Assembly: GCA_964618455.1 (NCBI GenBank)
Contig: CAZUAQ010000010.1
Coordinates: 1 to 64,000, forward strand
DNA: 64,000 nucleotides
Reading direction: 5' to 3'
Source: an uncultured Planctomycetales bacterium
GTDB lineage: Bacteria; Planctomycetota; Phycisphaerae; UBA1845; PWPN01
Every line of letters begins with the position of its first letter. Position 1 is the stretch's first letter. Shown piece by piece: positions 1-20,517 of the stretch. A program made the translations under genes and the position numbers. The notes under the pieces were generated by a model. The model was not told the origin of the DNA, did not search any database, and was given only the letters and a program-made list of their open reading frames with translations.

Positions 1-335
1 GCCTTTGTAACTCCTCTCGGCTCCCACAACCCCGGTCCGAAGACCGGTTTGGGCTAGATCCGCTTTCGCTCGCCGCTACTCACGGAGTCTCGGTTGATTT
101 CCTTTCCTCCAGGTACTGAGATGTGTCAGTTCCCTGGGTCGGCCCGACAGGCCTATGCATTCAGCCTGTCGCAATGCCATCTACTTGCGTAGTGACATTA
201 GGTTGCCCTATTCGGAGATCCCCGGATCTATCGCTTGTTTGACAGCTCCCCGGGGCTTATCGCAGCCTACCACGTCCTTCATCGCCTCTCGACACCTAGG
301 CATCCACCATGCACTCTTAGTAACTTGATCGCATG
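1..335 (-). rRNA. rrl: 23S ribosomal RNA, 5' part (continues beyond the window start)
   Basis: Reverse complement of 277-335 reads gatcaagttactaagagtgcatggtggatgcctagg...ggcgatgaaggacgtggtaggctgcgataagcc, the conserved 5' end of bacterial 23S rRNA. Confidence 0.85.
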
Positions 336-884
336 TATGACGGGCTGTCGACGTGAATCGACAAACCGCACCATCCACACTTTCAAGGCACCTTGACGCA
401 TCAAGGCGGTCTGCTCCGCCACGGCCGAAGCCGCAACGGCATCCACCGCCGGTCGCGTCATTCAACGATATCATTACGCCAAAACGTAAACACTCGAAGA
501 ATTGAACCTGTTGGTTGTGATGCTCACTACCTGCTGATGATCACGCACCTGCTCGCGCAGGTTCTGCGATCATCGATCTCACCTATCCAGTTGTCAAAGA
601 GCACGCGTCCCCATGGACGCATATCGTCACATCGTCCGAGGGCGAATTCCGCCGAAACGGCCGAAATCCCAAATCACCTCGGAGCCTAGCAAGTATACTC
701 GTCAATCGGCCGCTGTAAAGCCCACTGCGGCCGAAATCTTTACTTTTTTCGCGGCCTTTTTCGGGCTCGTCTCCACCGCAACGCGGTCGCCGAAACCGCC
801 GATCATGCACCCCCCGACGGGGGTCGTGATCAGGCCTTTCCGTGCCGTCCGCCGGGCTCGGGCGACGGTCCCACCCGAGTCACG

Positions 885-957
885 TGGAGCCGAGCGGGCT
901 CGAACCGCCAACCTCCTGGTTGCAAACCAGGCGCTCTCCCAGTTGAGCTACGGCCCC
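885..957 (-). tRNA. tRNA-Ala (anticodon TGC)
   Basis: Reverse complement ggggccgtagctcaactgggagagcgcctggtTTGCAAccagg...ggttcgagcccgctcggctcca; cloverleaf with anticodon loop tt-TGC-aa; sits in the ITS upstream of 23S. Confidence 0.9.
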
Positions 958-1006
958 GTATCCATCGACCGGGCTCACTACCGCCCGCGGCCGACGAAGA
1001 ATGCCA

Positions 1007-1080
1007 TGGGCCCGCGAGGATTCGAACCTCGGACCTCGTCGTTATCAGCGACGCGCTCTAACCAACTGAGCTACGAGCCC
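1007..1080 (-). tRNA. tRNA-Ile (anticodon GAT)
   Basis: Reverse complement gggctcgtagctcagttggttagagcgcgtcgCTGATAAcgacg...ggttcgaatcctcgcgggccca; anticodon loop ct-GAT-aa. Confidence 0.9.
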
Positions 1081-1158
1081 TCTTCAGTTGTCAGCCGCCT
1101 CCCGACGATCCTGCCTGCCCAGCCGACAATTTCCAAAAAACCGACTTTTCGTGAGGCG

Positions 1159-1187
1159 AAAAAAAAACCACCGACCCGAGTCGGCGG
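1159..1187 (-). terminator. Rho-independent terminator after the GATase/lipoprotein genes, upstream of the tRNA-23S unit
   Basis: On the minus strand ccgccgac-tcgg-gtcggtgg hairpin followed by a run of 9 T (plus strand has the A-run at 1159-1167). Confidence 0.5.
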
Positions 1188-1589
1188 TTCATCGCAGCAG
1201 GCGATAAACTTCGGCCTTCCGTCTAGGTCATCCCACGATCCCGGCTTGCCGGAACTCGGAATCCGTTGTCGGCTGGCATACGCAAAAGGCAGGATCCTCC
1301 GTTGGAGACCTCAAGACCGCTCATTCGCGGACCCACGCTCGTGAATCCACGGTTAAGTGTACATGCGTGTCGCGTTTTGTCAACCACGCGAAATCCACAC
1401 TCATGTCGACCTGTCCCCCGACAGGACTGCACCCAAAATGGCTGGATTCGATAGAATAATCGCCAATATTCCAGGAAATACATTCTCACTTTAATTGGCC
1501 TAGTTCACCCGTCTCGGGGCTATCTTGCAGCGTGAGCTTCGACCATTCGACGGCATCGCCTGCAGAACATGCTCCGGCTCCGCCCGATT

Positions 1590-9970: not shown

Positions 9971-11461
9971 TCATGGGTTGCCTTCGAAAGCCTGGGCATC
10001 GTGGCGATCCACATCGCCGTCCTGATCGAGATCGGCCGCCACGCACGCTTCGTCGATTCCGGCCTCGCTCAAGGTCTTCATGCATTGTTTCAGGAGGTCG
10101 CGATCGTTGTGATCCACGCGTCCATCCCCGTTGAGGTCCTTCCGGCTCTGGGTCAGCCCGTAGTCGTTCGTGTATTCGACGATGGACATGGCCAGGTCCG
10201 CCTTTTCATGCGGCTTACCGTTCACGTAGGCATGGCCCGGGACATCTTCGTTCATCTGCCACGTGTTGACGTCGGGGGAGGTCCATTCGAGGTAGTACAT
10301 TCGGCCCGGCTCGAGTCGGACCTCGTCGCGCTCCCACACTGCCACGGCGCGCGCCTGGGCAACCAGCGCCACACCGTGACCGGTCTTTTTCGGGCCGATC
10401 GGCTGACCGCCGGGCTGGTCGTACAGCTGGAACGTCACGGGATGCGCCGGTGGATGAAACTCGCCGGTCGCAAAGACCGCTTCGACCGCCGCCAGGCTTG
10501 TTCCGCTCGCCTTGAACGTCTGTCCGTGCGAGGTACCGGTGCCGATCAGCGTGCTGAACTGCTGCGTGGTGACCGGCGCGTAGTTGCACAGCGTGCCCGG
10601 CGCGCCGCCGCTGACGTAACCGTACGCGTCGAGATCCTTCCGCTCCATGCCGTCTACCCAGAGGTGGCCATGGGCGTAGCCATCCCCGGTATCCTGACGT
10701 ACCACCATTGAGAACGTTTTCGACTGTGAACTCGGGTCGCGCCAGAAGCGCATGGCGTAAGTCTTGCCGGGGGCAAGCTTCACTTCCTCGCTGCGATACG
10801 CCACCCAGAAGATGTGGATGATCGGGTCCGTGCCCTGCGACAGAAACCGCGACCGTACCGGCGAGATACGACGCCACGATTCCGGCGGCCCCTCATTCGG
10901 TTCATGAATCGCGTAGTTAAGCGTCAGGAAGTAGTGATCACCGGACTTACCCGCGAGCTTGGTGGCGACGCGCGTGACGTCGTTGCCCTCCGCGCGGAAG
11001 GTCTGGTAGAAATCGCTGCCCCACAGCCACGGCGAATCGCTCCACTCGGTATGGGCCTTATCGAATATGACGGAGTAGTGCGCGGGCGTGTTCAACCGCG
11101 CGCCGTCGAGTTTTTTCTCACCGCCGGGGATCTCGAGGTTCATGTGACAGGCGAAGGCAGGGATGTTGTCGTAGCTCAGCGCGGCCAGGGCGTACTCGCC
11201 CTTCGGGAAGCCTTGCTCGACGAAGGCGGGTTTGATCCCGAACCAGCCTGGCGGATTGTCGATGGTCGGCGCGCCGAATCCGAAACCCGGGCCGAGCGGG
11301 CAGACGTAGATATTCTGCTTGGACCAGTGATGAGGCGTCGCGTCGCGACCGGTCAGGCCGTCGGTCGTCAGCATGCCCTGCACCGCCTCGGCGGCGTGAA
11401 GGGTCGGCGTTATGCCATTGCATAAGAACACGATCAACGTCAGACGAAATGCAATTCTCAT
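9971..11461 (-). CDS. Secreted protein with C-terminal dockerin-like Ca-binding repeats
   Basis: Signal peptide MRIAFRLTLIVFLCNGITPTLHA; C-terminus DLNGDGRVDHNDRDLL...ADLDQDGDVDRHDAQAF resembles dockerin type I / EF-hand-like repeats. Confidence 0.6.
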   Translation of the reverse strand: MRIAFRLTLIVFLCNGITPTLHAAEAVQGMLTTDGLTGRDATPHHWSKQNIYVCPLGPGFGFGAPTIDNPPGWFGIKPAFVEQGFPKGEYALAALSYDNIPAFACHMNLEIPGGEKKLDGARLNTPAHYSVIFDKAHTEWSDSPWLWGSDFYQTFRAEGNDVTRVATKLAGKSGDHYFLTLNYAIHEPNEGPPESWRRISPVRSRFLSQGTDPIIHIFWVAYRSEEVKLAPGKTYAMRFWRDPSSQSKTFSMVVRQDTGDGYAHGHLWVDGMERKDLDAYGYVSGGAPGTLCNYAPVTTQQFSTLIGTGTSHGQTFKASGTSLAAVEAVFATGEFHPPAHPVTFQLYDQPGGQPIGPKKTGHGVALVAQARAVAVWERDEVRLEPGRMYYLEWTSPDVNTWQMNEDVPGHAYVNGKPHEKADLAMSIVEYTNDYGLTQSRKDLNGDGRVDHNDRDLLKQCMKTLSEAGIDEACVAADLDQDGDVDRHDAQAFEGNP

Positions 11462-11543: not shown

Positions 11544-11972
11544 TCAGTCGGGATCAAATTCCAACTCCATTTCGCTCCACGCACACGATGTCTCATCCAA
11601 GAACCAGCCGCGGATCGGTCGATCCTGCGTGGGCTCTAAAGAGACGATCACATAGAGCACGTCGGGCCACGCGCGGGAGGTGTCGAATTTGGAGGGGACG
11701 GCGGACGCGTCGGGATGCGAATGGTAGTAGCCCACGATGTCGATCTCTCGCCCGCGGGCGTCGCGCTGCAGACGGAGTTGCGCGCGGGCGTCGAGTTCGT
11801 AGCGGTGCGATCGATCGCCTTCCCAGGCGTTGGGCACGGCATGCACCTCGTGAATCTCGATCCGACCGACCGCGCTCACCCCCATCAGCACGCCGCAGCA
11901 CTCCTCGGGCGCCGCCGCGCGGGCGTGATCGAGCAGGACTTCACGATGCGCGTGGGACAGCACGACTTTCAT
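11544..11972 (-). CDS. JAMM/MPN+ metalloprotease (Mec+-like)
   Basis: 142 aa; motifs EECCG...HSHP...S..D (JAB/MPN catalytic signature); clustered with ThiS-like and E1 genes. Confidence 0.8.
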   Translation of the reverse strand: MKVVLSHAHREVLLDHARAAAPEECCGVLMGVSAVGRIEIHEVHAVPNAWEGDRSHRYELDARAQLRLQRDARGREIDIVGYYHSHPDASAVPSKFDTSRAWPDVLYVIVSLEPTQDRPIRGWFLDETSCAWSEMELEFDPD

Positions 11973-11981
11973 GGGCAGCGC

Positions 11982-13139
11982 CTAAAGGACCACCTGGTTC
12001 AGGGCATCAATGAGGACATCGATCTCCTCGGCAGTATTGAAATGCCCCGGGCTGACGCGGACCGCCCCGTCGGGGAAAGTGCCGAGTTCCTCGTGAATGT
12101 ACGGCGAACAGTGCAGGCCCGGCCGCACGGCCACCTGGAAGGAATCGTCCAGGATGGTGCCCAGCTCCGCCGGGGCAAGTCCCTCGGCGGTGAAGGCGAC
12201 GACGCCGCATCGGCGTGAGGCATCCTGGCTGCCCAGCAGCGTGAACCGATCGTCATCTTCCAGGGCCTGCGTGATCCTGGCGGCCAGGGTGCGCTCATGC
12301 TCAAGGGCGTTCTCAAACCCGAAGTCGTTCACGAATCCGATCGACGCCCCGAGCCCTGCCACACCGACGGTGTTCGGCGTTCCGCCCTCGAGCCAGTACG
12401 GATACAGGTGCGGCTGCGTGGGCGATGAGGAATCGCCACCCGTACCACCCTCGCGGAACGGTTTCGGATCCACACGCTCGCCGACGTAGAGCGCGCCGGT
12501 GCCCGTCGGCCCCAGCAAGGCCTTGTGACCGGGGAACGCCAGCAGATCGACGTTCATCTTTCGCACCGAGATCGGTACGAGTCCGATCGATTGCGCCGCA
12601 TCCAGCAGAAACAGCACGTCTGCTTCCCGCGCGATGCGTCCGATCTCCTCGGCGGGCTGAATCGTGCTCAGCACGTTGCTGCAATGCGTGCACGCGATCA
12701 ACCGCGTCTTCGGCGTGAGGGCCTGGCGGATCGCATCGGGGTCGATGAACCCGCCCTCGCTCATCGGCAAACGCGTGAGCGTGATGAAACCATTATCGGC
12801 CATCGCCTGCAGCGGGCGCGACACACTGTTGTGCTCGAGCGTGGTGGTGATGACATGATCGCCCTCGCAGACGACACCCTTGATGGCGATATTCAGCGCG
12901 TCGGTGCCGTTCATCGTCAGCACCATGCGGTGGGCATCGGTCCCGTCGATGATTTGTGTGAGCTTGGCGCGGACGTTGTCGAGCATGTTCTCGGCGGCGA
13001 CGGCCATGCGATGCCCGGATCGTCCGGGGTTGGCGGCATCTTCCGCGAGAAAGCGCGCCATCTCCCCCGCCACGTTGGGGGGCTTCGGCCAACTTGTTGC
13101 CCCGTTGTCCAGGTAAATCATATCGAACGTTTGCCTCAA
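11982..13139 (-). CDS. Cysteine desulfurase (aminotransferase class V, NifS/IscS/SufS-like)
   Basis: 385 aa; fold-type I PLP enzyme; motifs YLDNGATSWPKP, FPGHKALLGPTGTGALY (PLP-Lys), catalytic-loop Cys. Confidence 0.75.
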   Translation of the reverse strand: MRQTFDMIYLDNGATSWPKPPNVAGEMARFLAEDAANPGRSGHRMAVAAENMLDNVRAKLTQIIDGTDAHRMVLTMNGTDALNIAIKGVVCEGDHVITTTLEHNSVSRPLQAMADNGFITLTRLPMSEGGFIDPDAIRQALTPKTRLIACTHCSNVLSTIQPAEEIGRIAREADVLFLLDAAQSIGLVPISVRKMNVDLLAFPGHKALLGPTGTGALYVGERVDPKPFREGGTGGDSSSPTQPHLYPYWLEGGTPNTVGVAGLGASIGFVNDFGFENALEHERTLAARITQALEDDDRFTLLGSQDASRRCGVVAFTAEGLAPAELGTILDDSFQVAVRPGLHCSPYIHEELGTFPDGAVRVSPGHFNTAEEIDVLIDALNQVVL

Positions 13140-13163: not shown

Positions 13164-14237
13164 TCAAGATCCGATGTACCGCGCGTAGATCGTTCGCGCG
13201 ACTTCCGGCTTGTCCGTCCCTTTGACGATGGCGCGGCCGTCGGCAAAGACGGTCAGTTCGTACTCGGGCAACTGGGCCTTGAGCATGAACGCGTTGAAGC
13301 GCGGCGTACCGCCCTCGGCATCCTTGACCTTCTGGGCGATGGTCGGAAAGTCGATGCGAATCCCTTCCGGCGGCGTGACCTGTACGGCATTGCGGCCGCA
13401 CAGCGTGGTCGCGCTGCTGCCGAACTTGCCCTCGAGGAATTCGAAGTTCTTCTGCTTGCAGCAGGGGCAGTTGCCCATCTGGTAAGCCTTCTGCACCTTG
13501 AGCATCGAGAACCGCCCATCCCACGCATCGAAGTAGAGCAACCGCCGGTTCAGGGCATCCATCCGGCCCATGAGGATCTTCATCGCCTCGAGCGCCTGGT
13601 GACTGGCCACCATGTTGACGACCGGCCCAAGCACACCGGCGGTATCGCACGTCGGATTCATCTCCGGCGGCGGGGCCTGCTCGAAGATGCATCGCAGGCA
13701 CGGCGTCTCGTTCGGCAGAATCGGCATGGCCAGCCCCGTCGCGCCGATGCACGCCCCGTACACCCACGGCCGCTCCGTCTTGACCGCCACATCGTTGATC
13801 AGAAAGCGCGTCTCGAAGTTGTCGGTGCCGTCCATTAGCAGGTCGACATCCTCGCAGATGCTCTCGATGTTGCGATGGTTCACGTCCTTCACGACCGCCT
13901 CGACGGTGATGTTGGAGTTGATCCGCTGAATCTTCCGCTTGGCGGCCTCGGACTTCGGCAGGTTGCTGGCGATATCGTCCTCGTCGAAGAGCACCTGGCG
14001 CTGGAGGTTGTTGAACTCGATGAAGTCGCGATCGACGATGCGCAGGTAGCCGACGCCCGCGCGGGCCAGCGTGTTGGCCAGCACCGTCCCGAGCGCGCCG
14101 CAGCCGATCATCACGACCTTGGACTGCAGGAGCTTGCGCTGCCCTTCCTCGCCCACCGGTTCGTAGAGCATCTGCCGGGAGTACCGGGCCAGCTCGGCAT
14201 CCTGTTCAATCTTCGCCGCTTCTTTACTGATTGCCAT
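13164..14237 (-). CDS. ThiF/MoeB/HesA-family E1-like adenylyltransferase with C-terminal extension
   Basis: ARYSRQ...GQRKLLQSKVVMIGCGALG Rossmann/ATP motif; CLRC...CPCC zinc motif; extra ~100 aa at the C-terminus. Confidence 0.8.
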   Translation of the reverse strand: MAISKEAAKIEQDAELARYSRQMLYEPVGEEGQRKLLQSKVVMIGCGALGTVLANTLARAGVGYLRIVDRDFIEFNNLQRQVLFDEDDIASNLPKSEAAKRKIQRINSNITVEAVVKDVNHRNIESICEDVDLLMDGTDNFETRFLINDVAVKTERPWVYGACIGATGLAMPILPNETPCLRCIFEQAPPPEMNPTCDTAGVLGPVVNMVASHQALEAMKILMGRMDALNRRLLYFDAWDGRFSMLKVQKAYQMGNCPCCKQKNFEFLEGKFGSSATTLCGRNAVQVTPPEGIRIDFPTIAQKVKDAEGGTPRFNAFMLKAQLPEYELTVFADGRAIVKGTDKPEVARTIYARYIGS

Positions 14238-14313: not shown

Positions 14314-15042
14314 TCAGCCGTCATCTTTGCCGAAATCCGCCAGAAAGCCGTCCGGCGGTGGTTCTTTTTCTTCTCTCACCTTGCTCACGTCGACGTTCAT
14401 CGGCGGCGGTGTGACGCCCTTCCGGCGTGCGGGATCCTGCGCCTGCTGCTGCCCTGATGGATTCGTCGTCCGTCCATCTTCCTTCTGCGACACCACCCGC
14501 CGCAACGCCTCCGCCCGCGCTGCCGCCTGATCGGCATCCACGCGTTGCATCTCTCCATAGGATTCGGAGCCGATCGACCGCGCCATCATGACGGGATCAT
14601 TGCCGATCTTCAGAACACTCCGATGCGCGATGAGGTTATTCCTGGCCATGTAGATGAAGTAAGCGCCAATCGCAATGAACAGGATATCGTTCATGAAACC
14701 GTATCCCAGCATGACGAGGAGTCCACTGCTGGTTATCCAGGCGGCTCCGATGATCGCCGTGATGATGGCATCGATGACCAGCGCATACGGCACAGCCAGA
14801 AAGCAGAGTGCCGCGGCGATCAACAATGCAAAGCCGCCATATTGAATCGACCAGTTGTAGGTCACTGCAGCAAACGACAATAAAGCCGCCTCCTGCTTGG
14901 GTTCGTACAGCGCAATGACGCGCGAGACCAGAACCAGGAGAACTCCACCGATCAGCGCCGACATCGCCGCGTTGGACATCACCTGCTTCGCATACGGCGT
15001 CTTCCAGACCGAACCCGATTGTTCCTGCGGTGCTTCCTGCAT
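14314..15042 (-). CDS. Integral membrane protein, function unknown (in the sulfur-carrier operon)
   Basis: About 4 predicted TM helices; start chosen at MQEAPQEQ (ATG reverse complement at 15040-15042); C-terminal polar tail. Confidence 0.45.
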   Translation of the reverse strand: MQEAPQEQSGSVWKTPYAKQVMSNAAMSALIGGVLLVLVSRVIALYEPKQEAALLSFAAVTYNWSIQYGGFALLIAAALCFLAVPYALVIDAIITAIIGAAWITSSGLLVMLGYGFMNDILFIAIGAYFIYMARNNLIAHRSVLKIGNDPVMMARSIGSESYGEMQRVDADQAAARAEALRRVVSQKEDGRTTNPSGQQQAQDPARRKGVTPPPMNVDVSKVREEKEPPPDGFLADFGKDDG

Positions 15043-15112: not shown

Positions 15113-15646
15113 TCACCCCTCCACGATGCTCTTCTCGATCGGTTCGACCTCCGCGCCGGTCTGCTCCAGGAAAGCGACCGCCTGGTCGACCTGGCTTTCC
15201 GGCCCTTCCAGCATCAACGCCATGATGCCGACCGTCTCGCCGGTACTCGACTGCCGCAGGTCGAACGCGACATCGAACCGGTGGGCCATCTCCCAGAGGA
15301 TCGGTGCGCGGTAATGTTCGAGCTGCCACGTTACCCAGAGTTTCCGCCCGACGCGCGGCTCGTCCTGGGAGCCGAAGGCCTTCTTCGGCCGTGGCGGAAC
15401 GTCGCCCTCGTGCGGATCGCTCTTGAGCACGTTCACGCCGACGCCATTCTTGCGAAAGAACGCCTCGGCATCCTCGACCGCCTCGCGCGAGCCCCACAGC
15501 GACAGCACGACATGCCCTTCGCGATGAGACACGTTCGCCTTGTCGAAGTTGTAGACCACGTCATGCGCCTGCCCCATCTGCCAGAGCAGGTTGCCGGTCA
15601 CCAGGTCCGTCGGGAACGTCAATTCCAATGTGTGTTCAATCGCCAC
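15113..15646 (-). CDS. Tandem NIL-domain-like small protein
   Basis: 177 aa with two repeated about 80-aa modules (GNLLWQMGQAHDVVYNF.../APILWEMAHRFDVAFDL...) resembling the NIL domain of MetN C-termini and sulfur-metabolism proteins. Confidence 0.45.
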   Translation of the reverse strand: MAIEHTLELTFPTDLVTGNLLWQMGQAHDVVYNFDKANVSHREGHVVLSLWGSREAVEDAEAFFRKNGVGVNVLKSDPHEGDVPPRPKKAFGSQDEPRVGRKLWVTWQLEHYRAPILWEMAHRFDVAFDLRQSSTGETVGIMALMLEGPESQVDQAVAFLEQTGAEVEPIEKSIVEG

Positions 15647-15690: not shown

Positions 15691-15966
15691 TTAACCGCCC
15701 GCCACCGCCTGGATAATGCTCACGTCGTCGCCTTCCTTGACCGGTGTTTCTAGGTTCTCCTGAAAGCGGATGTCCTCGTCGTTGACGAAGATATTCACGA
15801 AGCGGTTCAGTGAGCCGTCCTCCTTGAAGAGCCGCGGTTTGAACTCGGCGTACTTCCCGCAGAGCCCGTCGAGCACCTCGCCGACCGTGCCGCCCGACGC
15901 CTCGACCACGTCGTTGCCCTCGGTGAACTTGCGCAACGGTGAGGGTATTCTTACTTCAATCGCCAT
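15691..15966 (-). CDS. ThiS/MoaD/CysO-like sulfur-carrier protein (ends -AGG)
   Basis: 91 aa MAIEVRIPSPLRKFTEGNDVVEASGGTVGEVLDGL...DDVSIIQAVAGG* with terminal Gly-Gly; found as the C-terminal part of the spurious 447-aa ORF 15691..17034; ATG at 15964-15966 (reverse complement). Confidence 0.75.
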   Translation of the reverse strand: MAIEVRIPSPLRKFTEGNDVVEASGGTVGEVLDGLCGKYAEFKPRLFKEDGSLNRFVNIFVNDEDIRFQENLETPVKEGDDVSIIQAVAGG

Positions 15967-16049: not shown

Positions 16050-17300
16050 TCAACCCACGCCGGCCGTCTCGCGCCGGGCGCGGATGATCTCGTCGAACGC
16101 GCTGAGCTTCGGCGGAATCACCGGCGGTTCCTCGAGCCGGTCCACGACTGCCTCGATGGTCTTGAGTCCCTGGCCGGTCACGCTGATGACGATGGACTCG
16201 TCGCGCGGGATGCGGCCCTGCTCGATGAGCTTCTTCGTCACCGCCACGGTCGTTCCACCGGCGGGCTCGGTCCAGAGCCCTTCGCACTCGGCCAGTTCCT
16301 TGATGCCGTCCACGATCTCGTCGTCGGTGACGCTCTCGGCCCAGCCGCCGGATTCCTGCACCGCCTGGACCACGTAGTAGCCGTCGGCGGGGTTGCCGAT
16401 GGCGATCGACTTGGCCAGCGTGTTCGGTTTCTGCGGGGCGATGAGATCGGTGCCCTCGTGAACGGCCTTGACCACCGGATTGCAGCCGCCCGCCTGCGCG
16501 GAATACACCTTGCACGGCGTATCCTCGACCAGTCCGATCTTCACGAACTCGCGGAACGCCTTGTGCACCTTGGGCAGGATCGTTCCCCCGGCGGTCGGCA
16601 CCACGATATGCTGCGGCAGACGCCACCCGAGCTGTTCCGCCACCTCGTAACCATAGGTCTTCGCGCCCTCGGTGTAGTACGGCCGAAGGTTCACGTTGAC
16701 GATCGCCCAGCCGTACTTGTCGGCGATTTCCGCGCAGAGGCGGTTCACGTCGTCGTAGTTGCCCTCGATCTTGACCATGTGGGGCTTGTAGATCAACGAG
16801 CCGACGACTTTGCCCAGCTCGAGATCGTGGGGAATCATGACGTAGGCGGGCTTGCCGACGTGGGCGGAGTGGGCAGCGACGCTGTTGGCCAGGTTGCCCG
16901 TGCTCGCACAGCCGAAGGTGTCGAAGCCGAACTCCAGCCCCTTGCTGATGGCCACGCTGACCACGCGCTCCTTGTAGGACAGCGTGGGCACGTTGACCGA
17001 GTCGTCCTTGATGTACAACTCGCGGCAGCCCCACCGCGCGCCAAGGTTCTTCGCCCGACGAAGCGGCGTCCAGCCGGAATGTTCTCCCGTGGCAGGCTCG
17101 CCTTCGACGGGCAGCAGATCACGGTAACGCCACAACGAGGCCGGGCCGGCCGCGATCGACTCGCGCGTCACCTTGCCCTTCATGGCCTCGTAATCGTATT
17201 CCACCTCGACCGGTCCGAAACACATGTCGCAGACGTGAATCGGCTCGATGGGATATCGTTGACCGCACTCCCGGCACTTCAGCCCGATGACATAACTCAT
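16050..17300 (-). CDS. Threonine-synthase-like PLP enzyme with N-terminal Cys4 zinc ribbon
   Basis: Start at MSYVIGLKCRECGQRYPIEPIHVCDMCFG (ATG reverse complement at 17298-17300, RBS aggaag); fold-type II PLP motifs (TLSYKERV... Lys, GCASTGN, PTAGGT); ThrC-like length. Confidence 0.75.
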   Translation of the reverse strand: MSYVIGLKCRECGQRYPIEPIHVCDMCFGPVEVEYDYEAMKGKVTRESIAAGPASLWRYRDLLPVEGEPATGEHSGWTPLRRAKNLGARWGCRELYIKDDSVNVPTLSYKERVVSVAISKGLEFGFDTFGCASTGNLANSVAAHSAHVGKPAYVMIPHDLELGKVVGSLIYKPHMVKIEGNYDDVNRLCAEIADKYGWAIVNVNLRPYYTEGAKTYGYEVAEQLGWRLPQHIVVPTAGGTILPKVHKAFREFVKIGLVEDTPCKVYSAQAGGCNPVVKAVHEGTDLIAPQKPNTLAKSIAIGNPADGYYVVQAVQESGGWAESVTDDEIVDGIKELAECEGLWTEPAGGTTVAVTKKLIEQGRIPRDESIVISVTGQGLKTIEAVVDRLEEPPVIPPKLSAFDEIIRARRETAGVG

Positions 17301-17455
17301 GCCTGACTTCCTGCTTTCGTGGCCCATGCTCCCGGGCGGTATGCCGAGAGACAGGATTGGACACCGACCCGCTGCAATCCCGAACGAAAGACCCCAGGCA
17401 TCTTGTCGAAAGGGGAGGTCTGGGCAAGGCCGGCAAGGTTCCGAAGGCATGCCGC

Positions 17456-17500
17456 CACAAAAAAACCTCTTTCCACCCGGTGGGAGAAAGAGGTCCGATT
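17456..17500 (-). terminator. Intrinsic terminator (expression platform of the SAM riboswitch)
   Basis: Minus strand cctctttctcccaccgggtggaaagagg hairpin followed by ttttttt; lies between the aptamer and the start codon at 17300. Confidence 0.7.
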
Positions 17501-17520
17501 CGCTGAAAGGAATGGGCCCC

Positions 17521-17652
17521 CTTATCTTCCCCGCGCCGATTCGGGCCGGGTTGGAGTTAGCACCCTACTGCGGATCAGCCGATCGGGCCTTTCCCAGCGG
17601 GTTGCTGTGGCTTCACAGGGCCAATCCCTCCGCCACTCTCGATAAGAGACCT
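17521..17652 (-). ncRNA. SAM-I (S-box) riboswitch aptamer
   Basis: Minus strand: cucuuaucGAGAGuGGcGGAGGGAuUGGCCCugUGAAgccacaGCAACCc...GGUGCUAAcUCCaac...GAAGAUAAG; matches the S-box consensus (P1 cuuauc/gauaag, AGAG.GG, GGAGGGA, UGGCCC, GCAACC, GGUGCUAA). Confidence 0.8.
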
Positions 17653-18051
17653 GCAATGTCTAATGCCCGCATTGTAGTCATGCCCGTCGGCGGCGTCAAA
17701 CGAGGAGGGCCACCACCGCCGATCCGGCGTCCTCGGGCTCCCCACCCGCGGGAGGACGGTCCCCGCGCCCGCTCCACTGCAGAAAATGGCGTTTTTATAG
17801 GCGCGTGATCTCGCAGACAGCTATAATGACAGGTGTATCGGCGGAAGGAACGACTCGCGTTCCCCGCACGCGTCCGACGCCTGTCACCTTTCGGTGAATG
17901 CATATCGACGGCGTCCGATGCTTGCCCTGTCCGCCGCCTGTCGCGGAAGCCTGTGACGCGAAAATGGGATGTCTCGGTACACGTCGCTTGGACGTGGCGC
18001 TTTGGTTTTGCCGCGAAGGCAGATCCATCCCCCATCGACGGGAGGTCTTAC

Positions 18052-18909
18052 ATGTCCGGTCGAGTTCCTCAAGCAATCCTACGCCATCGATCTTCGCGCG
18101 CATTCACCTTGATCGAGATGCTCGTGGTGGTGGCCATCATCGCACTGCTCGTGGCGATTCTGCTCCCATCACTCAGCAAGGCGCGCCAGGCCGCACGGGT
18201 GACGCTGTGCCTGTCAAACCTGCGATCCATCGGATCCGCGTCCACCATGTACATGAGCGATAACCGGGACTGGCTCCCCGTCGGCCCCCCGGACAAACTC
18301 TACTGGCGCTACCAGAAGAACGGTCGCACGTTTACGTCGCGGAGCTTCGTCTCCAATGCCCGGCCCTATCCCTACTCCAACTGCCATTGGGGCGGACGCC
18401 GGGCCGAGCAGGTTCACGGCAACGATCCGGAAACATTCAACCGCCCGCTGACGCGCTACCTCTATCCGAAGTCGAGCCTCGACAACGAGATGCCGCTCTT
18501 CCAGTGCCCGGGCGACACCGAACTGACGAATGACAACTTCACCAAGCTGAAACGCTCGTTCAGTGACATCCGAAAGGACCAGAGCATCTACGAGATCTGC
18601 GGCAACAGCTATTACAACAATCCCTGGTTGGATTCCACCATGGAAGAGAAACGTCACGCCCTGGTCACCAGCCGTGTCGTGCTCTATGAAGACGCGGTCT
18701 TCTTCATCGACAAGCGCCGTTACGGCAACGAGGGATCGGAATTCTATCTGCCGGCCGTGCAGAGCATGGGATGGCACGGCTCCTTCTCGAAGCACAACCT
18801 GCTCTTCCTCGACTTCCACGGCGAGTTCAAGTACGCGGACACGCGTGCCGACAGCGGCCCGGGTTGGATCGTCGAGAACTACTTCGACATCATGGACTAC
18901 TACTATTGA
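18052..18909 (+). CDS. Prepilin-type N-terminal cleavage/methylation + H-X9-DG (DUF1559) protein
   Basis: Start MSGRVPQ.. with RBS gggagg; RAFTLIEMLVVVAIIALLVAILLPSL prepilin leader/TM; typical planctomycete DUF1559 C-terminus. Confidence 0.8.
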   Translation: MSGRVPQAILRHRSSRAFTLIEMLVVVAIIALLVAILLPSLSKARQAARVTLCLSNLRSIGSASTMYMSDNRDWLPVGPPDKLYWRYQKNGRTFTSRSFVSNARPYPYSNCHWGGRRAEQVHGNDPETFNRPLTRYLYPKSSLDNEMPLFQCPGDTELTNDNFTKLKRSFSDIRKDQSIYEICGNSYYNNPWLDSTMEEKRHALVTSRVVLYEDAVFFIDKRRYGNEGSEFYLPAVQSMGWHGSFSKHNLLFLDFHGEFKYADTRADSGPGWIVENYFDIMDYYY

Positions 18910-18992
18910 CGAGTGGACGCGAGCGTCCGGATTCAACCTGAGATCACTCCTCGTCCTGATCACGCACCGGTTCGACAGAATCAAGCCAAAGG

Positions 18993-19062: not shown

Positions 19063-20517
19063 TTATCCCTGCAGCAGCGACAGCACGCTCTGCGAGGTGG
19101 TGTTCGCGATGGCCAGCACCGAGGTGCCCGCATTGACCAGAATCTGGTTTCGGGTCAATCGGGAGGTTTCGGCCGCGAAGTCCGTATCGCGAATGGCAGA
19201 CTCGCTGGACATCAGGTTTTCCATCGTAATGGTCAACGAGTTGATGTTGGTCTGCAGCGTGTTCCGCTCAAAGGCGCCCAGCCGTCCTCGGAGCACCGCC
19301 ACCTGGCGGATCGCTTCGTTGACGATGAGTGACGATTGCGCGGCGTTCGTGACGTTGCGAATCACTTCAAAATCACCGCCTTCCTTGATCTGACTCAGGA
19401 ACCCGACGTTGGCGTTTCCGAGCCGGGAAGCCGCGATCGACTGCACGCCGATGTTCACCTGCTGGTTCGGACTGACGTCCGGACCGAGCTGGAACAGGGC
19501 GCCACCGCCGGTGACCGCGAACGCGGTCGACCCGATCCCGAAGCTTTCCTCGAGGGTCAGCGAGAGATCGAGATTGCGTGTGTTCAGGACGAGGTCGAGA
19601 CCGCGACCGATGCTCTTCGCACCGTTGATGGTCGCGACCGCGTCGCGCCCGTCGTCGCGCTTGAAACCGTCGCCCAGCGTCACCCCGTTCTCGTTCACGA
19701 GATCGAAGTTGCCGCTCCCGGGCAGAAGTGAGACTTCCACGAACTCGTCACTTCCGTAGCCGACGCTCTGCAGCGTCATCCCGCTGGCGGGATTGGCGCT
19801 GTTGATGAGCTGGGCCTCGATACCGCTGCCTTCGGTCTCCCGGTTGATCGCGGCCACGATGTCCGAAGCCGTGGTCCCCGAGACGAACTCGATGACCGTC
19901 GTTCCCAGCACACCGCGCACCTCGATCGAGATGCTGCTGGCAATGGACGAGGTCTGGAACTGCAGCATCGCCTTCTGCGCCGACGTCGTTACGGCGACGT
20001 CCACGGGGATGAAGCTGGCGTTCCCGAACTTCGCGGAATGGACCGCGAGTGTGGCGATGGCGGAACTCTGCACACCGCTGGTGATGTAGCCGAGATCTCC
20101 GTTCAGCAGAGGTCTCCCGGCAAAGGTTGTCGAATTGGCGATACGCGTGATGGACTCGATGGCCGAGTCGATCTGCAATTGATTGGCACGCTTCTCATCG
20201 TCGGACAAGGCGGCATCGTTGGCAATTTCAACGATCAGACCCTGAATATCGATGAGCAAGGCGGCCGCTTCGTCGAGGGCGCCTTCGGTCGTGGCGATGA
20301 TGTTGATCGCTCTTTGCGAGTTGCTGATGGCCTTCTGGACACCCGCAATCTCGGCCCGCAGACTCTCGGAATTGATGAGACCTGCCGGATCATCGGCACC
20401 ACGATTGATACGAAGACCACTCGAGAGGCGTTCCAACGAGACTTGAAGATCACGTTGCGTGCGACTCAACGTGCGTTGCGCGACTATCGCCGGTACGTTT
20501 GTGTTGATCCTAGCCAT
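19063..20517 (-). CDS. fliC: Flagellin
   Basis: N-terminal MARINTNVPAIVAQRTLSRTQRDLQVSLERLSSGLRINRGADDPAG and C-terminal LTRNQILVNAGTSVLAIANTTSQSVLSLLQG flagellin D0/D1 helices. Confidence 0.9.
   Translation of the reverse strand: MARINTNVPAIVAQRTLSRTQRDLQVSLERLSSGLRINRGADDPAGLINSESLRAEIAGVQKAISNSQRAINIIATTEGALDEAAALLIDIQGLIVEIANDAALSDDEKRANQLQIDSAIESITRIANSTTFAGRPLLNGDLGYITSGVQSSAIATLAVHSAKFGNASFIPVDVAVTTSAQKAMLQFQTSSIASSISIEVRGVLGTTVIEFVSGTTASDIVAAINRETEGSGIEAQLINSANPASGMTLQSVGYGSDEFVEVSLLPGSGNFDLVNENGVTLGDGFKRDDGRDAVATINGAKSIGRGLDLVLNTRNLDLSLTLEESFGIGSTAFAVTGGGALFQLGPDVSPNQQVNIGVQSIAASRLGNANVGFLSQIKEGGDFEVIRNVTNAAQSSLIVNEAIRQVAVLRGRLGAFERNTLQTNINSLTITMENLMSSESAIRDTDFAAETSRLTRNQILVNAGTSVLAIANTTSQSVLSLLQG

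Follow-up and report, generated by a model that had tools for sequence, protein, structure and literature searches.

A SAM-I riboswitch in the leader of a putative MetM/MetO-type homocysteine operon of an uncultured planctomycete

Protein thiocarboxylates serve pyridoxal phosphate (PLP) enzymes as sulfide donors in the CysO-CysM-Mec-MoeZ pathway of Mycobacterium tuberculosis, which leads to cysteine, and in the HcyS/MetY pathway of Wolinella succinogenes, which leads to methionine; in both, a ThiF-type E1 and a JAMM protease serve as accessory factors. In Streptomyces albulus, as summarised in two papers, the threonine-synthase homologue MetM converts O-phosphohomoserine to homocysteine by means of the MetO thiocarboxylate (PMC12172450; bioRxiv 10.1101/2024.10.14.618325), and both papers credit this route to Hasebe et al. 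2024 (AEM 90:e01247-24). The thiocarboxylate pathway MetO/Mec/MoeZ/MetM is described in Appendix 4 of the second, where GapMind notes that MetM is 'often misannotated' as threonine synthase (bioRxiv 10.1101/2024.10.14.618325). The discussion of the first places an S-adenosylmethionine (SAM) riboswitch upstream of S. albulus metM, citing Hasebe et al. 2024 (PMC12172450). Here we analysed a stretch of 64,000 nucleotides (nt) of an uncultured Planctomycetales bacterium (contig CAZUAQ010000010.1, positions 1 to 64,000; hereafter the window), in which a SAM-I (S-box) riboswitch precedes seven genes that start with a ThrC-like gene and a sulfur-carrier gene. Our analysis indicates that this is very probably a canonical SAM-I riboswitch, acting as a SAM-OFF switch by transcription termination on a seven-gene homocysteine operon of a planctomycete (Phycisphaerae-like).

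The elements assigned to the leader are as follows.

17671..17699, minus strand: promoter-like site, from consensus match
17519..17648, minus strand: SAM-I (S-box) aptamer, from RF00162, our own covariance model and covariation across relatives
17551..17624, minus strand: SAM-I pseudoknot, from pairing and covariation in 56 sequences
17482..17531, minus strand: predicted antiterminator, from duplex energy and folds of truncated transcripts
17459..17496, minus strand: intrinsic terminator, a hairpin with loop ACC, bulged U17475 and U7, from folding and a census of T runs
17301..17458, minus strand: spacer with the ribosome-binding site (RBS) AGGAAG, from Rfam scan, fold z-score and homologue alignment

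An Rfam 15 scan of the whole window revealed one riboswitch match only, to RF00162 (SAM-I/S-box) at 17648..17519 on the minus strand, with 81.1 bits, well above the gathering score of 44.4, and an E value of 1.6e-17. The alignment spans the entire model (positions 1-108 of 108). When 17150..18150 was scanned with Rfam permissively (E up to 1), the same match came back and no second regulatory RNA was found in the spacer or in the divergent intergenic region. The aptamer also scored 103.7 bits with a covariance model that we built from 16 Rfam-validated relatives. A preliminary description of this DNA, made from its letters, had proposed an S-box aptamer from a P1 helix and four motifs and had named an RF00162 score above the gathering threshold as the check; motifs and score both bear it out. 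P1 is formed by CUCUUAUC (17648..17641) and GAUAAGGG (17526..17519), and the motifs AGAGUGG, GGAGGGAUUGGCCC, GCAACC and GGUGCUAACUCC were all found on the minus strand within 17652..17456. P2 to P4 build a four-way junction, with a 19-nt insertion in P3 relative to the Rfam consensus. The SAM-I core nucleotides are all in place, namely AGAG in J1/2, GGAGGGA...GGCCC, UGAAG of the P2 kink, GCAACC and GGUGCUAA, and they are the invariant columns of the 16 relatives. The pseudoknot joins the P2 loop UUGG (17624..17621) to CCAA of J3/4 (17554..17551) by four Watson-Crick pairs. The leader RNA therefore has every computable defining feature of SAM-I, and it is predicted to bind SAM.

The same arrangement was found in related loci. 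A homologue search with one genome per species gave 328 relatives of the ThrC-like protein, of which the best 80 loci were examined. Among these, the closest relatives are Tepidisphaeraceae and Phycisphaerae metagenome-assembled genomes (MAGs), with 70-74% identity, and the next are Binatia, 'Deltaproteobacteria' MAGs, Brocadia, Omnitrophota and others. By Rfam, RF00162 was present upstream of the ThrC-like gene in 13 of the 13 Planctomycetota loci scanned, and also in three Binatia loci and one Limnocylindria locus; it was not found in the scanned Omnitrophota, Thermodesulfobacteriota or Margulisiibacteriota loci. Our own covariance model placed a SAM-I aptamer ahead of the homologous gene, and on its strand without exception, in 56 of the 80 loci; in several of the remaining loci the upstream flank was truncated. 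RNAalifold recovered P1-P4 from the relatives. Across the 56 distinct sequences, 95.1% of the P1-P4 cells are standard pairs and 15 of the 29 pairs are changed on both sides; none of 500 shuffles paired as well, and slid registers were at most 50% paired. For the pseudoknot, 82% of the cells are paired and two of the four pairs covary. The S-box aptamer that had been proposed from the sequence is thus borne out by covariation of its four helices and its pseudoknot in homologous leaders. The carrier gene adjoins the ThrC-like gene in nearly all of the 80 loci and an E1 gene commonly follows; the gene order in Phycisphaerae (SAM-I, ThrC-like, carrier, NIL, ThiF, desulfurase) is the same as the core of the window operon.

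Downstream of the aptamer lies a terminator hairpin at 17494..17465 (minus strand, extendable to 17496), which reads ACCUCUUUCUCCC, loop ACC and GGG(U)GGAAAGAGGU. It begins 24 nt past P1 and runs into U7 at 17465..17459, the first T of which pairs with A17494, in agreement with the hairpin about 20 nt downstream, followed by seven T, that had been noticed before. ViennaRNA gives it -16.8 kcal/mol; two G-U pairs at the base bring this to -18.8 to -19.2 kcal/mol. The hairpin escaped a simple scan for consensus terminators, probably owing to the bulged U17475, which breaks up the inverted repeat of the stem; in place of that scan we folded the RNA with ViennaRNA and took a census of the T runs. 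The window, at 62% GC, holds only nine runs of at least six T on its two strands together, and two or three of them, that of the terminator included, directly adjoin a stable hairpin. Because such runs are rare and few of them adjoin a stable hairpin, the hairpin with U7 is beyond chance. An equivalent hairpin and U-tract was found in 12 of 16 related leaders.

The predicted antiterminator pairs GGGaAGAuAAGGGG (17531..17518), which holds the 3′ strand of P1, with CCUCUUUCUCCC (17493..17482) in the 5′ arm of the terminator, giving a 12-bp duplex with two 1-nt bulges and an energy of -15.6 kcal/mol. When transcripts ending at 17482 or 17479, just past the 5′ arm of the terminator or its loop, were folded, the minimum-energy fold had the antiterminator formed, P2-P4 intact and P1 open. 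A near-copy of the 5′ strand of P1 (CUUCUUAUC or UUCCUAUCUUA) is found in the terminator's 5′ arm in most of the related leaders. The 3′ strand of P1 therefore has two possible partners, P1 and the terminator arm, and this is the design of the classical S-box antiterminator. Complementarity beyond that of composition-matched shuffles was found in all nine planctomycete relatives tested, with z-scores of -2.0 to -6.1.

Upstream of the aptamer, by about 23 nt, is a sigma-70-like site at 17699..17671 (minus strand) with a -35 element TTGACG (17699..17694), a 17-nt spacer and a -10 element TACAAT (17676..17671). Purely as a consensus match, it agrees at 10 of 12 positions and is the only such site on the minus strand in 3 kb, where shuffled sequences gave 0.5 expected sites over both strands. 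It would place the transcription start near 17664, about 15 nt before P1. Downstream, 158 nt (17301..17458) separate the terminator from the start codon, with the RBS AGGAAG at 17312..17307, 6 nt before ATG 17300. ATG 17300 was taken as the start because homologues of the ThrC-like protein align from residue 1 of its product and because it has this RBS; an in-leader ATG at 17450, which opens a longer reading frame, was rejected for the same reasons. The fold of the spacer is unremarkable (z-score +0.95). The nearest supported minus-strand gene upstream of the riboswitch encodes a flagellin (20517..19063), and a plus-strand DUF1559/prepilin gene (open reading frame 17833..18909) sits between the two. 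It follows, as the preliminary description had it, that the riboswitch is a 5′ leader and not a 3′ terminator; it lies in a divergent intergenic region. Three minus-strand open reading frames (17613..18035, 17795..18103 and 18214..18984) were rejected as high-GC artefacts, as they overlap the Pfam-supported plus-strand DUF1559 gene.

Seven minus-strand genes follow the riboswitch, with intergenic gaps of 9-83 nt.

16050..17300, minus strand: ThrC-like PLP enzyme with an N-terminal Cys4 zinc ribbon, 416 aa, candidate MetM (PALP 3.9e-60)
15691..15966, minus strand: ThiS/MoaD-type sulfur carrier, 91 aa, ending in AVAGG, candidate MetO (ThiS 1.1e-15; MoaD family, SAMP1)
15113..15646, minus strand: protein with two NIL domains, 177 aa (NIL 3.2e-19, two stretches)
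14314..15042, minus strand: membrane protein, 242 aa (gene call on the identical 2.7-kb public contig L081, run SRR7048224)
13164..14237, minus strand: ThiF/MoeB-type E1 adenylyltransferase, 357 aa, presumed carrier activator (ThiF 2.5e-77; MoeB/ThiF family)
11982..13139, minus strand: class-V aminotransferase/cysteine desulfurase, 385 aa, presumed sulfur donor (Aminotran_5 1.9e-84; TIGR01977 398 bits, cutoff 377)
11544..11972, minus strand: JAMM/Prok-JAB metalloprotease, 142 aa, Mec-like (Prok-JAB 8.6e-24; desampylase-like)

The census of T runs of at least six, on both strands, found no T-run terminator among these genes, and all seven would form one unit. The ThrC-like protein has a small zinc-ribbon match at residues 8-32; it scored 258 bits with TIGR00260 (thrC equivalog, cutoff 167) and, over residues 1-386, 296.6 bits with PRK08197, which is near the threshold of 303. 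The closest solved structures, those of ThrC, align with it only from residue 53, and the zinc ribbon is absent there. This absence and the PRK08197 match hint indirectly at kinship with MetM rather than with canonical ThrC. The JAMM protease carries the motif HSHPDASAVPSKFD, of the pattern HxHx7Sx2D. For the membrane protein, neither Pfam nor NCBIfam gave a family match, and tblastn detected no homologue in the related loci.

All four functions of the MetM/MetO pathway, and a cysteine desulfurase, are thus present in the window behind one riboswitch. This suggests that the operon encodes a MetM/MetO-type homocysteine pathway, and would fit a self-sufficient form of it, the correspondence being drawn from homology, context and the published description. 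The earlier label of a ThrC-like/sulfur-carrier operon agrees with the PALP, thrC and ThiS matches and can be given this more precise name. The tie to methionine and SAM metabolism, which had been read from the riboswitch, likewise fits the MetM/MetO route and the SAM riboswitch that the citing literature reports at S. albulus metM.

The identity and fold of the aptamer, the terminator, the gene families and the conserved arrangement are directly supported by these data, and together they point to the following SAM-dependent termination mechanism. Transcription would begin near 17664. When SAM is abundant, it would be bound at the four-way junction and P1 would be locked; with the 3′ strand of P1 so occupied, the hairpin with U7 could form and the polymerase would terminate near 17460. 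When SAM is scarce, P1 would be lost, its 3′ strand, rich in purines, would pair with the terminator's 5′ arm, rich in pyrimidines, and the polymerase would read through into the operon. Of the products, the cysteine desulfurase and the ThiF-type E1 would load sulfur on the carrier at its C-terminal Gly-Gly, giving a thiocarboxylate from which the ThrC-like enzyme, acting on O-phosphohomoserine, would produce homocysteine, and the JAMM protease would hydrolyse carrier adducts. The riboswitch would in this way provide end-product feedback on the synthesis of methionine and SAM.

Several results weigh against this reading. The antiterminator of the window is no better than that of composition-matched shuffled arms, of which 238 of 1000 were as good (z = -0.7); over the shuffle tests as a whole, about 22-27% of shuffled arms were at least as good. 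With the full platform and constrained folding, the forced state of P1 and terminator (-83.0 kcal/mol) lies lower in energy than the state with the antiterminator forced (-78.5 kcal/mol). The unconstrained minimum of the full leader (-85.7 kcal/mol) shows neither the aptamer fold nor the antiterminator and keeps the terminator, and the z-score of the whole-leader fold is just -1.67. The gap of 158 nt between terminator and start codon exceeds that of most relatives. Finally, the ThrC-like protein also passes the NCBIfam threonine synthase model TIGR00260.

The two strands of the window antiterminator are nearly pure purine and nearly pure pyrimidine, and shuffles of such strands pair similarly, so that this step rests on the relatives and on folding; in the window it is thermodynamically plausible and is supported by homology. 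Of the SAM-OFF platform that had been proposed, the terminator is real and a mutually exclusive antiterminator is predicted by folding, but the pairing in the window does not rise above base composition. The energies of the constrained and unconstrained folds imply that kinetics and ligand must govern the decision, as they usually do in transcriptional riboswitches, and since an unconstrained fold is uninformative for a ligand-stabilised kinetic switch, we used the constrained and truncated folds instead. We also observed that the unconstrained fold pairs 17630..17617 (5′ side of P2, GGAGGGAUUGGCCC) with 17519..17505 (the linker after P1, GGGCCCAUUCCUUUC). This pairing could be an aptamer-disrupting alternative of the SAM-free state, or simply a folding artefact.

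The composition of the antiterminator strands bears on a different explanation, in which the aptamer does sense SAM but exerts control through Rho, translation or RNA stability rather than through the hairpin and U7. SAM-I elements that act on translation have been described, for example in Xanthomonas (PMC7270179). The antiterminator that cannot be told from base composition and the full-length minimum-energy folding, in which the terminator is retained in every state, both speak for this explanation, and the untranslated spacer could act as a Rho loading zone. However, the RBS lies about 150 nt past the terminator and about 200 nt past the aptamer, and the spacer has no significant structure, so direct sequestration of the RBS is unlikely. 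The hairpin with U7 is strong and rare and is placed as in those relatives whose antiterminators are significant, and the truncated transcripts do yield the antiterminator. We consider control of this other kind improbable, and termination at the hairpin remains the preferred reading.

Somewhat less probable still is that the first gene encodes a bona fide threonine synthase and that the riboswitch tunes the threonine/methionine branch at O-phosphohomoserine. This would account for the TIGR00260 score, 258 bits against a cutoff of 167, and for the fact that the nearest solved structures are all threonine synthases; moreover, a homologue from a cyanobacterium, with 51.6% identity to MetM, reportedly acted as ThrC/threonine deaminase (PMC12172450). 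However, the window protein is fused to a zinc ribbon that the solved ThrCs lack, and in the surveyed loci a GG-terminated carrier gene follows the ThrC-like gene almost invariably, as an E1 gene commonly does. A SAM-OFF switch on threonine synthase would mean less threonine when methionine is plentiful, which would make little metabolic sense. Plant threonine synthase is activated by SAM, the opposite direction. GapMind, as noted, states that MetM is often called threonine synthase in error (10.1101/2024.10.14.618325), so TIGR00260 evidently does not separate MetM from ThrC. We therefore retain MetM/MetO-type homocysteine synthesis as the probable function of the operon. A decayed or fortuitous RF00162 match without regulatory function is effectively refuted by the full-length alignment at E = 1.6e-17 with all family-invariant nucleotides, the aptamer position kept in 56 loci and the intact terminator, and is extremely improbable.

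The accessory content of the related operons was also noted. Roughly 50 of the 80 loci, from several phyla, retain a gene for a NIL-domain protein within the ThrC-like/carrier operon; the window copy (177 aa) has two NIL repeats, and a copy of 84 aa in the Phycisphaerae locus L002 (10601-10855) has one. By analogy with the NIL domains of MetN and of the methanogen homocysteine system, this protein could, for example, bind methionine or homocysteine as a regulatory subunit, or act as an adaptor in sulfur delivery. The same L002 locus has a DinB-family (mycothiol-S-transferase-like) gene at 11956-12516, between ThiF and the cysteine desulfurase, which is without counterpart there in the window; accessory content therefore varies among close relatives. 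In Binatia (L012, 8191-12792, and similar loci) the order is SAM-I, ThiF, ThrC-like, carrier, a second PLP enzyme, NIL and a second ThiF-like gene. The second PLP enzyme is PALP-fold, 328 aa and of CysM/CysK-like size, which suggests that in Binatia two thiocarboxylate-dependent PLP enzymes may stand under one SAM switch.

The genes around the operon appear unrelated to it. The divergent gene at 17833..18909 (plus strand) encodes a DUF1559/prepilin-type N-methylation protein, a signature gene of planctomycetes that speaks for such an origin of this DNA, as do the closest homologues of the ThrC-like protein; beyond it is the flagellin gene, and downstream of the operon is the gene at 11461..9971, whose secreted product has a dockerin domain. 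At the other end of the window, within 1..1200 on the minus strand, we identified the 5′ end of a 23S rRNA gene (330..1), preceded by tRNA-Ile(GAT) (1080..1007) and tRNA-Ala(TGC) (957..884), with a strong hairpin and U9 ending at 1159 just upstream of the tRNAs. Rfam found no 16S rRNA upstream of these genes in the window, and the 16S gene therefore appears to be unlinked from the 23S gene. Such unlinking is common in planctomycetes.

The riboswitch is genuine but ordinary, a textbook case, and the link of riboswitch to gene has already been reported in Streptomyces, according to a paper that cites that work (PMC12172450). What is new is modest. First, this is a planctomycete instance, in which the sulfur-activation genes would be co-transcribed with the core genes. 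Second, our survey shows predicted SAM-I control of the pathway to be the rule across several uncultured phyla. The conserved cases, 56 of 80, support the O-phosphohomoserine/thiocarboxylate route as widespread in uncultured Planctomycetota, Binatia and other lineages. For annotation, the riboswitch is of value as it flags a gene that pipelines would name 'threonine synthase' as a member of the methionine/SAM regulon. The locus also highlights two passengers of the operon, the NIL-domain protein and the membrane protein, as possible components of the pathway. A tentative proposal, which we hold with rather low confidence, is that the window carries a self-contained seven-gene variant of MetM/MetO with its own sulfur supply, in which the NIL protein, and perhaps the membrane protein, are functional parts.

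In comparison with the yitJ and metI leaders of Bacillus subtilis, the window riboswitch shares the four-way junction of P1-P4, the pseudoknot between the P2 loop and J3/4, and the invariant core nucleotides. It is also like them in its predicted OFF logic, in P1 as the proposed anti-antiterminator with an intrinsic terminator after it, and in preceding an operon of the methionine pathway. It differs in that its host is a high-GC planctomycete and not a Firmicute, in the 19-nt extension of P3, and in that its terminator lies 158 nt before the start codon. Its predicted antiterminator is a bulged purine/pyrimidine duplex and not a crisp copy of the 5′ strand of P1.

The CysO-CysM and HcyS/MetY pathways have CysM or MetY, not a ThrC-like protein, as the PLP enzyme, and their substrates differ from those of the window pathway; neither is known to be under SAM-I control. 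MoeZ carries a rhodanese domain; the E1 of the window, for which a domain search gave no rhodanese match, is unlike it in this respect. The closest likeness is to metM-metO of S. albulus, a system described here through the papers that cite it. In both, a ThrC-homologous enzyme stands beside a small sulfur carrier with a SAM riboswitch upstream, a likeness that extends to the presence of a SAM riboswitch, whatever its class or the operon layout. The proposed chemistry, O-phosphohomoserine with a carrier thiocarboxylate, and the helpers, an E1 (MoeZ) and a JAMM hydrolase (Mec), are also alike. Unlike the S. albulus system as those papers present it, the window places the genes of the E1, the cysteine desulfurase and the JAMM protease downstream of this one riboswitch and on its strand, alongside those of the NIL protein and the membrane protein.

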